Source: Escherichia coli O127:H6 str. E2348/69 (GTDB lineage: Bacteria; Pseudomonadota; Gammaproteobacteria; Enterobacterales; Enterobacteriaceae). From it: 64,000 nucleotides of DNA. The notes beneath the pieces are model-generated. The model ran no database searches, was not told where the DNA came from, and saw nothing but the letters and a program-made list of their open reading frames with translations. Positions 44,930-49,664 of the stretch are shown in pieces. Made by a program: the position numbers and the translations under genes. The stretch is from NCBI RefSeq assembly GCF_000026545.1, contig NC_011601.1; one strand, written 5' to 3'. The first letter of the stretch is position 1; each line of letters begins with the position of its first letter.

Positions 44930-46867
44930 GTGACTCTTAAACGGGCCTGTTCCCTGCTGACGGTGAAATCCTTCAGTGAGGATGAACGAGTGATCACCGG
45001 GATTGCGTCAACGCCTTCTCCGGATCGGGATGGTGACATCCTGGAGCCGGAGGGCGCGGAGTTTGGCAGTGCGATCCCGTTTCTCTGGCAGCATGACCAT
45101 TCCCGCCCGGTGGGGCAGTGTACGGTGCGCCGGGTCAGCGAAGGGCTGGAAATCACGGCAACACTGGTGAAGCCCGTACCGGATATGCCGTCGCAACTGG
45201 CTGCCCGGCTGGATGAGGTCTGGGCGGCCATTAAGACCGGGCTGGTCAGGGGGCTGTCCGTGGGCTTCCGTCCCCATGAATACACCTTTCTGGACGGAGG
45301 CGGACTGCATTTTCTGCGCTGGGAACTGATGGAGGTGTCTGCCGTCACCGTGCCCGCGAATGCGGAATGCACCATCCGGACCATTAAATCTTACGACCGC
45401 CCGTTTTCTGCCGCGTCCGGCAACCGGAAACCGGTGGTGAAAATCGCATCTTCTGCCGGCGCTGCGGCACAGTCAACAACCGTTTTTCATAAGGAAAAGA
45501 CCATAATGAATATTGGCGAACAGATTAAAAGTTTTGAAAACAAGCGTGCAGCGCTGGCAGCCTCCCTTGAGGAGGTCATGACCAAAGCCGCAGAGGAAGG
45601 GCGCACGCTGGATGTGGAGGAGGAAGAGCATTACGACAACACCGCAGCGGAAATCCGTCAGGTGGATGCGCACCTGAAGCGCCTGCGTGAACTGGAAGCC
45701 GGTAAGGCCGCCACGGCGCAGCCGGTGAAACAGGCCGGTAACGGGAATGTGGCCGCGGTGGCTTCTGCGCCGGTGATCCGTGTGGAGCAGAAACTGGATA
45801 AGGGGATTGGCTTCGCCCGCTTTGCCAAATCGCTGGCTGCGGCTAAAGGCGTCCGATCTGAAGCCCTGGAAGTGGCCCGTCGTCAGTATCCGGATGACAG
45901 TCGTCTGCATCATGTCCTGAAATCGGCAGTGGGCGCGGGGACCACCACGGATCCGCAGTGGGCAGGCAGCCTGTCTGAATATCAGGAATACGCACAGGAC
46001 TTTATTGATTACCTGCGTCCGCAGACCATTATCGGGCGATTTGGTCAGGGCGGGATCCCTGCACTTCGTCAGGTGCCGTTCAATATCCGTGTGCACGCCC
46101 AGGTGTCCGGCGGTGCTGCCGGCTGGGTGGGTGAGGGTAAGGCAAAACCCCTGACGAAGTTTGATTTTGAATCCATCACCTTCAGTCATGCGAAGGTGTC
46201 GGCCATTGCGGTACTGACGGAAGAATTGATCCGTTTTTCCAGTCCGGCTGCTGATGCACTGGTCCGTAATGCGCTGGCGGAAGCGGTGGTGGCGCGTCTG
46301 GATACAGACTTTGTGGACCCGAAAAAAGCCGCAGTGGCAGATGTCTCCCCGGCGTCCATCACCCATGATGTGAAGGGCACGGCATCAACCGGTAACCCGG
46401 ATGCGGATGCAGAGGCTGCGTTTGGACAGTTTGTGGCAGCAAACCTGCAGCCCACCGGTGCGGTCTGGCTGATGTCCAGCACCAATGCCCTGGCACTGTC
46501 CATGCGTAAAAATGCGCTGGGTCAGAAGGAATACCCGGACATGACCCTGCTGGGTGGCTCCTTCCAGGGGCTGCCGGTGATTGTCTCCCAGTACGTGGGT
46601 GACCAGCTGGTGCTGGTGAATGCCCCGGATATTTATCTGGCGGATGACGGAGGCGTGGCAGTGGATATGTCCCGCGAGGCATCACTGGAAATGCAGTCTG
46701 AGCCGACCGGCGACAGTACCACGCCGTCCCCGGTGGAGCTGGTTTCCATGTTCCAGACAGGCAGCGTGGCCATCCGTGCGGAGCGCTGGATCAACTGGCG
46801 TCGTCGCCGTACCGCGGCGGTGGCGGTGATCACCGGAGTGAACTACGGCAGTGCGTCCGGCGGCTGA
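44930..46867 (+). CDS. fused prohead protease (HK97/S78-type) and major capsid protein
   Basis: 645 aa; N-terminus ...ITGIASTPSPDRDGDIL...QHDH...GLSVGF...EVSAVTVPAN; C-terminal half HK97-capsid-like. Confidence 0.75.
   Translation: MTLKRACSLLTVKSFSEDERVITGIASTPSPDRDGDILEPEGAEFGSAIPFLWQHDHSRPVGQCTVRRVSEGLEITATLVKPVPDMPSQLAARLDEVWAAIKTGLVRGLSVGFRPHEYTFLDGGGLHFLRWELMEVSAVTVPANAECTIRTIKSYDRPFSAASGNRKPVVKIASSAGAAAQSTTVFHKEKTIMNIGEQIKSFENKRAALAASLEEVMTKAAEEGRTLDVEEEEHYDNTAAEIRQVDAHLKRLRELEAGKAATAQPVKQAGNGNVAAVASAPVIRVEQKLDKGIGFARFAKSLAAAKGVRSEALEVARRQYPDDSRLHHVLKSAVGAGTTTDPQWAGSLSEYQEYAQDFIDYLRPQTIIGRFGQGGIPALRQVPFNIRVHAQVSGGAAGWVGEGKAKPLTKFDFESITFSHAKVSAIAVLTEELIRFSSPAADALVRNALAEAVVARLDTDFVDPKKAAVADVSPASITHDVKGTASTGNPDADAEAAFGQFVAANLQPTGAVWLMSSTNALALSMRKNALGQKEYPDMTLLGGSFQGLPVIVSQYVGDQLVLVNAPDIYLADDGGVAVDMSREASLEMQSEPTGDSTTPSPVELVSMFQTGSVAIRAERWINWRRRRTAAVAVITGVNYGSASGG

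Positions 46868-49664: not shown

Follow-up and report, generated by a model that had tools for sequence, protein, structure and literature searches.

A fused prohead protease-capsid gene with a putative nested capsid start in the head module of an Escherichia coli O127:H6 prophage

The window analyzed here is a 64,000-nt stretch of the chromosome of Escherichia coli O127:H6 strain E2348/69 (NC_011601.1), and it contains a block of phage head genes, all on the + strand (coordinates below are those of the window). In this block the prohead protease and the major capsid protein are encoded by one 645-aa open reading frame (ORF), and the portal gene lies after that ORF. The fusion and the portal-after layout are real, old and already annotated, and are no anomaly. 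Sequence features at the protease/capsid junction suggest a nested gene, in which the fused gene probably, though not assuredly, yields both a protease-delta-capsid chain and the delta-capsid part alone. As a whole, nested start included, we consider it highly probable that the block represents the head-morphogenesis genes of a lambdoid prophage of this enteropathogenic E. coli (EPEC) strain, within a large HK97-like siphophage lineage.

A sequence-only reading of the window had proposed that the ORF following the large terminase gene carries an HK97-type protease and a capsid-like half, and that the portal comes next. Both proposals were borne out by profile hidden Markov models. Peptidase_S78 (PF04586) matches aa 48-152 of the fused protein with 34.7 bits (cut-off 21) and Phage_capsid (PF05065) matches aa 386-635 with 53.1 bits (cut-off 24.2); TIGR01554 (major_cap_HK97) covers aa 204-584 (78.1 bits, cut-off 27.5), and a match to phrog_617 spans the full length of the ORF. 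The TIGR01543 score, 46.5 bits, is below the equivalog cut-off of 59, and the protease half is thus classed as a member of the S78 family by Pfam and not as the NCBI equivalog. The next long ORF scores 272 bits with Phage_portal (PF04860; cut-off 39.1), and the searches did not give the converse assignment, with portal at 44930..46867 and capsid at 47079..49664. Within the protease half, Ser110 (in GLSVGF) aligns exactly with Ser114 of HK97 gp4, which together with His65 we take to be the catalytic residues of that enzyme; Ser110 and His55 are conserved in 39 fused homologues.

An AlphaFold2 (AF2) model of the 645-aa protein, built on 44 sequences, has a mean predicted local distance difference test score (pLDDT) of 77. 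Residues 1-146 form a beta-rich protease domain (block pLDDT mostly 68-90, lower in the first ten residues), followed by a disordered linker (residues 147-191, pLDDT below 50) that shows no conservation in the 44-sequence alignment. Then come a confident helical hairpin (195-262), a disordered segment (267-285), further helices (293-331), disordered stretches (333-349) and the capsid shell domain (about 349-642). Foldseek searches with this model gave 296 PDB matches at E <= 1e-3; among the 50 best listed, nearly every one is a phage capsid protein, and one is an encapsulin. Bxb1 is the top match (E = 3.5e-15), R4C, Muddy, D3 and T5 fall within 1e-15 to 1e-10, and HK97 is at about 1e-10. BLASTP found no significant similarity between the capsid half and HK97 gp5, so that this kinship is visible through profiles and fold only. 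In the model, the region 193-332 looks like a delta or scaffold-like domain, and its resemblance to the HK97 N-arm (an AGSL motif) points to a possible maturation cleavage near aa 331-336.

Is the capsid half also translated on its own? Met193 of the window protein precedes sequence typical of HK97-type capsid N-termini and has AAGGA upstream, and a few capsid-only relatives found by phmmer start exactly at query residue 193/194. A start codon is present at this junction in all 51 fused genes compared (50 related loci plus the window), as ATG in 45, GTG in four and TTG in two; the chance of finding any start codon in a five-codon window is about 26%. Duplex energies with the anti-Shine-Dalgarno sequence were calculated for the 18 nt upstream of each junction start. 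Their median is -6.2 kcal/mol, compared with -2.5 kcal/mol at 1820 other in-frame start codons of the same genes (Mann-Whitney p = 1e-22, a value that is indicative only and tells against too firm a reading, as the compared sequences are related and it overstates their independence). True capsid starts, in loci where protease and capsid genes are split, have a median of -5.75 kcal/mol. A junction Shine-Dalgarno (SD) sequence of -5 kcal/mol or stronger occurs in 45 of the 51 genes, which span 35-76% identity, and the flanking linker is hypervariable apart from this SD and start. Many Alphaproteobacteria have AAGGAGG at the junction, coding Lys-Glu-Gly, and Pseudomonas phage PAJU2, discussed below, has AGGAGG, an 8-nt spacer and ATG. 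In the enterobacterial relatives the junction Gly codon is the rare GGA in nine cases out of nine; GGA makes up 11% of the Gly codons in those genes. By sequence, then, the fused genes contain a putative in-frame internal initiation site with an SD as strong as that of real capsid starts, and a nested start in use would be expected to leave just such traces at the junction.

The following scheme would fit these features. Initiation at GTG 44930 would give the full protease-delta-capsid chain, and initiation at the conserved internal SD/ATG (45506) would give delta-capsid alone. Through their shared capsid part both products could co-assemble into the prohead, and the N-terminal protease would thereby be carried inside without a separate docking tail. 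By cleavage near aa 331-336 the protease would then release itself together with linker and delta domains, and the mature shell protein would be about 310 aa long.

Besides the relatedness of the compared genes, several points weigh against this scheme. In the pairwise alignment His55 (in LWQHD) is one residue off His65 of HK97 gp4, and conserved residues are all that suggests protease activity. In the window itself the internal SD, AAGGA at a spacing of 10 nt, is of modest strength. The persistence of start and SD could come partly from repeated recent fusions of split genes, an origin that is plausible because fused and split states both occur within the lineage. Finally, the two products and the cleavage site of the window gene are predicted from the sequence alone. 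A rival reading is that the gene makes a polyprotein only: a protease would then come in with every capsid subunit, and the Met and SD at the junction would be relics. The 645-aa ORF is indeed uninterrupted and has its own start with a perfect AGGAGG; the alternation of fused and split states makes a relic of a separate capsid gene plausible; and, on a rough volume estimate of our own, the prohead interior could hold some 415 protease-delta copies. A relic, however, would be expected to decay in a hypervariable linker, yet the start is kept in 51/51 genes and a strong SD in 45/51, and rare GGA codons maintain the latter. We therefore regard the polyprotein-only alternative as unlikely, and prefer the two-product gene.

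A more radical alternative makes the fusion either an error of assembly or, in a prophage that is defective, an accident of the pseudogene type through a lost stop or a frameshift. Defective prophages are frequent in E. coli, and the adjacent portal ORF does owe its length to a real 1-nt frameshift (see below). Nevertheless, fusions of the same size occur in Enterobacterales, Pseudomonas, Comamonas and Rhizobiales, and in plaque-forming phages too (PMC12502783), and the protease and capsid domains both score above their family cut-offs. This alternative is effectively refuted.

The sequence-only reading had also called the gene order unusual. It does depart from the canonical order, for which HK97 is the reference (TerS-TerL-portal-protease-major capsid protein), but within its own lineage it is both fixed and common. 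The window proteins were located by phmmer in 80 related loci from genomes of Alpha-, Beta- and Gammaproteobacteria. Portal is downstream of the capsid gene in every one of the 77 loci that have a portal match, and TerL is upstream in all 70 that have a TerL match. Because this order is shared by the related loci (77/77), the layout is a lineage trait and not a local rearrangement; the position of portal after capsid is inherited, without demonstrated functional consequence. From these loci the lineage order appears to be HNH, TerS, TerL, protease(-)capsid, Y, portal, X, adaptor, head closure (Y and X are described below). The fusion itself varies: protease and capsid form one ORF in 50 loci and do not in 30, and in 26 of the latter each was found as an ORF of its own next to the other, in many cases with an overlap of a few bases. 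Split loci are mostly from Sphingomonas, Paracoccus, Devosia, Paraburkholderia and Ignatzschineria. A phmmer search of 1.84 billion cluster representatives returned 12577 relatives of the fusion. Among the 150 best, the majority are fused over their full length, at 630-680 aa and 38-57% identity, and a fusion of 644-648 aa was found across Enterobacterales, Pseudomonas, Comamonas and Rhizobiales. Two relatives, P0243 (1094 aa) and P0252 (1091 aa), have about 440 extra N-terminal residues; this extension could reflect an additional fusion or a gene call that ran on from TerL.

The ORF that the sequence-only reading called portal deserves the name for its first 454 residues only; the remainder is a separate downstream gene (X) joined to it by a 1-nt insertion. 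Portal profile matches (Phage_portal as above, and TIGR01537 portal_HK97 with 348.6 bits against a cut-off of 112) are confined to the first 390-410 residues or so, and portal family phrog_2271 is also matched by the ORF. PDB sequence matches of the portal include HK97 (8cez, E = 8e-20), phiXacJX1 (9lbn, E = 3e-28) and the RcGTA portal. X stands as an ORF of its own in all 66 relatives with a homologue; in most it comes directly 3' of portal, and often its start and the portal stop overlap by a short stretch. The relatives' portal ends ...KAMIRGFLTK*, with a stop that overlaps the ATG of X (ATGA), and the window reads ...KAMFRGDTEK-MTEREL.... Judged from this comparison, the 861-aa "portal" is portal (aa 1-454) plus gene X, fused because the G run at 48424-48429 is one base longer than in the split allele.

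Could the C-terminal 400 residues instead be a true extension of the portal, like the barrel of P22? The Prokaryotic Genome Annotation Pipeline, PHROGs (phrog_2271, phrog_1289) and many records call both the whole ORF and the separate X "portal protein". The 66 separate X genes, the relatives' RGFLTK* portal ends and the split five-G allele of phage JLK-2012 all argue otherwise, as do the collagen repeats in some relatives' X and its CBM5/12-like tip, which are features of fibres and not of portals. A true extension is accordingly very improbable. A search with the C-terminal 441 aa of the long ORF yielded hardly anything beyond incomplete portal sequences of E. coli draft assemblies and gave no hint of function.

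Both alleles of the G run are widespread. JLK-2012 has five Gs and two separate genes, and six Gs are present in the window, phage 2851 and YYZ-2008. Among IMG/VR contigs, 41 carry G6 and 57 carry G5 (about 58% G5). The alleles mostly track the flanking haplotype, and three G5/G6 pairs share identical 1.2-kb flanks, so that either the run has switched recently or the homopolymer was misread in sequencing. The G run is inside an SD-like AGRGGR motif 5' of the ATG of X, and free X may therefore still be made from the fused allele. A programmed -1 frameshift at the portal stop of the G5 allele (CGA AAA UGA) was considered and set aside as only a distant prospect, the slippery context not being conserved (ACC AAA TGA and similar).

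What might X do? Its AF2 model starts with a long helix; a repeat region that varies between relatives comes next, and a confident C-terminal beta domain ends the protein. The repeats (162 bp x 3.3 copies according to Tandem Repeats Finder, TRF) vary in copy number between phages, and the phage records 705R7, Stx2_EH1904 and Stx1a_10314 are shorter by exactly one 162-bp unit. In Pfam scans, some relatives have collagen triple-helix repeats in place of the 54-aa repeats. The C-terminal domain of about 90 aa is the most conserved part of X across loci. CBM_5_12 (PF02839) stays below its gathering score of 26.2 there, at 21.0 bits in the window X and 24.3 in the relative L003. Fold likeness is weak: the best local matches are chitin-binding domains (about 45-55 aligned residues, rmsd 1.4-6), Foldseek also indicates resemblance to phage tail-fibre tips and viral collagen-repeat proteins, and the structure search with X found no PDB match at E <= 1e-3. 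From these models X looks like a trimeric fibre, which in the fused allele would be joined to the inward-facing end of the portal. X was also considered as a post-portal protein of the MuF / SPP1 gp7 type and rejected: PF04233 is absent in Pfam scans of the window and nine relatives, and only the gene position is analogous. PHROGs, RefSeq and GenBank records give X (phrog_1289; L003 12006-13049 and equivalents) the label "portal protein" although it lacks a portal domain, a label probably carried over from the fused allele.

A small gene, Y, lies between capsid and portal. Homologues with a conserved N-terminal motif were found in the capsid-portal gap of 61 related loci. The window Y overlaps the portal gene by 55 nt, whereas Y of the enterobacterial relatives stops at the portal start.

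A bolder reading links these pieces. In it, the capsid protein is the vehicle for the maturation protease in a conserved two-product gene, a phage counterpart of herpesvirus UL26/UL26.5 across Proteobacteria, and the G run at 48424-48429 is a mutable switch by which X, a fibre of carbohydrate-binding type, becomes attached to the C-terminus of the portal, the end that faces inward. We put this combination forward tentatively, as a possibility that is on balance doubtful. If it were true, the G-run switch would imply either a role of X at the portal within the head or different roles for its fused and free forms.

The features of the block are collected in Table 1.

Table 1. Head-module features of the window
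Feature	Coordinates	Strand	Basis and remarks
HNH endonuclease	41989..42354	+	RefSeq annotation of identical E2348/69 sequence, ORF list; directly 5' of TerS
TerS	42645..43208	+	Terminase_2 36 bits; phrog_641
TerL	43205..44866	+	TerL_ATPase, TerL_nuclease; phrog_9
Terminator-like GC hairpin then T-run	44891..44908	+	Consensus scan and sequence; between TerL and fused gene, just 5' of AGGAGG ribosome-binding site
Fused protease-capsid ORF, 645 aa, GTG start after AGGAGG	44930..46867	+	
Protease domain, aa 1-147	44930..45370	+	HK97 gp4 alignment, homologue conservation, model
Hypervariable linker, aa 148-192, predicted disordered	45371..45505	+	pLDDT, alignment
Internal SD-like AAGGA (45491-45495) and in-frame ATG (45506-45508, Met193)	45491..45508	+	Putative start of 453-aa capsid-only product
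Delta/scaffold-like capsid N-terminal region (predicted), aa 193-332	45506..45925	+	AF2 model; TIGR01554 match from aa 204
HK97-fold capsid shell domain, aa 333-645 plus stop	45926..46867	+	PF05065; Foldseek
Small gene Y, 73 aa, phrog_829 (function unknown in PHROGs)	46912..47133	+	Between capsid and portal
Long portal-X ORF	47079..49664	+	861 aa from RefSeq ATG; 893 aa from upstream GTG at 46983
Portal proper, aa 1-454 of 861-aa ORF	47079..48440	+	Phage_portal, TIGR01537, PDB sequence matches; relatives' portal ends
G6 run	48424..48429	+	One G above split allele; portal in frame with X
Gene X, aa 455-861, joined here to portal	48441..49664	+	Separate ORF in 66 relatives; phrog_1289; AF2 model
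162-bp (54-aa) tandem repeat, 3.3 copies, within X	48666..49198	+	TRF
Conserved C-terminal domain of X, ~90 aa, CBM5/12-like motif	49383..49661	+	Cross-locus conservation; sub-threshold CBM_5_12; Foldseek
Head-tail adaptor Ad1	49661-49987	+	Profile matches; neck genes in HK97 order
Head closure Hc1	49997-50347	+	Profile matches
Ne1/gp10-like	50344-50790	+	Profile matches
Tail terminator	50787-51131	+	Profile matches; major tail protein gene next

An HNH gene beside the terminase genes is typical of HK97-like cos packaging modules. A second terminator-like site was noted at 51159-51173, before the major tail gene, and in HK97 putative terminators are annotated at places comparable to this site and the one at 44891-44908. 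In the promoter/terminator scan of the sequence, sites were no more numerous than in shuffled controls.

The 7.4-kb module matches the chromosome of EPEC O127:H6 strain E2348/69 at 100% identity; the lambdoid prophage to which it belongs there has nleA, nleH and nleF some way downstream of the head module. Near-identical modules are present in 1257 of 5426 complete E. coli genomes, at a median of five places per genome, and in 95 phage records, mostly of long-tailed Shiga toxin (Stx) phages with Stx1 or Stx2. Infectious phages that carry the module include PAJU2, phage 2851 and YYZ-2008; so does Pankowvirus phi330, which has been grown above 1e9 plaque-forming units (PFU)/mL (PMC12502783). Depositors of Stx phage records have already named the 645-aa product "major head protein/prohead protease", with portal after it, and the fused layout must count as already known because PAJU2 was annotated with a "prohead protease fused capsid protein" in the same order. 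Full-text literature searches for protease-capsid fusions yielded little, and in the literature searched we found no protein-level description of such a two-product capsid/protease gene. The phi330 paper gives peptide maps for podoviruses only and none for the siphovirus head protein (PMC12502783).

These findings leave the current understanding of capsid assembly unchanged. They do concern a module that roughly one complete E. coli genome in four contains, frequently more than once, that also sits in long-tailed Stx phages and type III effector prophages, and for which current names mislead: "phage major capsid protein" hides the protease, and "portal protein" has been put on an unrelated fibre-like gene. 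What is newly added is the putative nested start, the portal-X fusion by an extra G, and the small conserved gene Y, the first two being modest leads. The conserved internal start offers a simple case in which to test whether an HK97-like phage doses its protease through a nested gene, in parallel to herpesviruses.

The closest well-annotated counterpart is PAJU2 ORF003-ORF007 (GenBank AP009624). Its fused protein is 48% identical to that of the window, and the order is the same: terminase, "prohead protease fused capsid protein" (ORF003), small ORFs, portal, an X-like ORF and adaptor. PAJU2 shares the junction SD and ATG. It differs in that portal and X are separate genes (with a 4-nt overlap), and in its host and the remainder of its genome. 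Nearer in sequence are the Stx and lambdoid phages 2851, YYZ-2008, WGPS6, JLK-2012 and 1717 (Pankowvirus, Marienburgvirus), with 95-99.7% nucleotide identity over the 7.4-kb module; JLK-2012, 1717 and EH2201 differ in having the G5 allele, with portal and X separate, and some Stx phages have one 54-aa repeat fewer. HK97 itself has the same components in gp3, gp4 and gp5 (portal, S78 protease, and HK97-fold capsid with an N-terminal delta scaffold) and the same downstream neck genes, but has the three as separate genes in the order portal-protease-capsid. The HK97 protease docks via its own C-terminal tail, and in the window protein the covalent linker would take its place.

One-gene protease-capsid architectures have also been reported from lineages different from that of the window: in thaumarchaeal proviruses (PMC6563490), in actinobacteriophages with a "major capsid and protease fusion protein", for which the announcement lists terminase, portal, then the fusion (PMC6606914), and in Pseudomonas phage MD8, whose gp5 is a fusion with a protease of the ClpP/lambda-C type (PMC8508860). 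The NCBIfam model NF045541, named for prohead protease/major capsid protein fusions, has a cut-off of 525; the fused protein of the window reaches 54 bits, over aa 48-287 only. The architecture is shared and the family is different.

If the internal start is used, the nearest functional parallels would be the nested protease/scaffold genes, of which lambda C/Nu3 and Mu I/Z are phage examples. Like herpesvirus UL26/UL26.5, these produce a long protease form and, from an internal start, an in-frame short assembly form. They differ from the window gene, for which two products are predicted, in that its shared part is the capsid protein (delta plus shell) and not a scaffold. In herpesviruses, the protease-scaffold fusion ensures incorporation of a sub-stoichiometric protease (PMC11565193).

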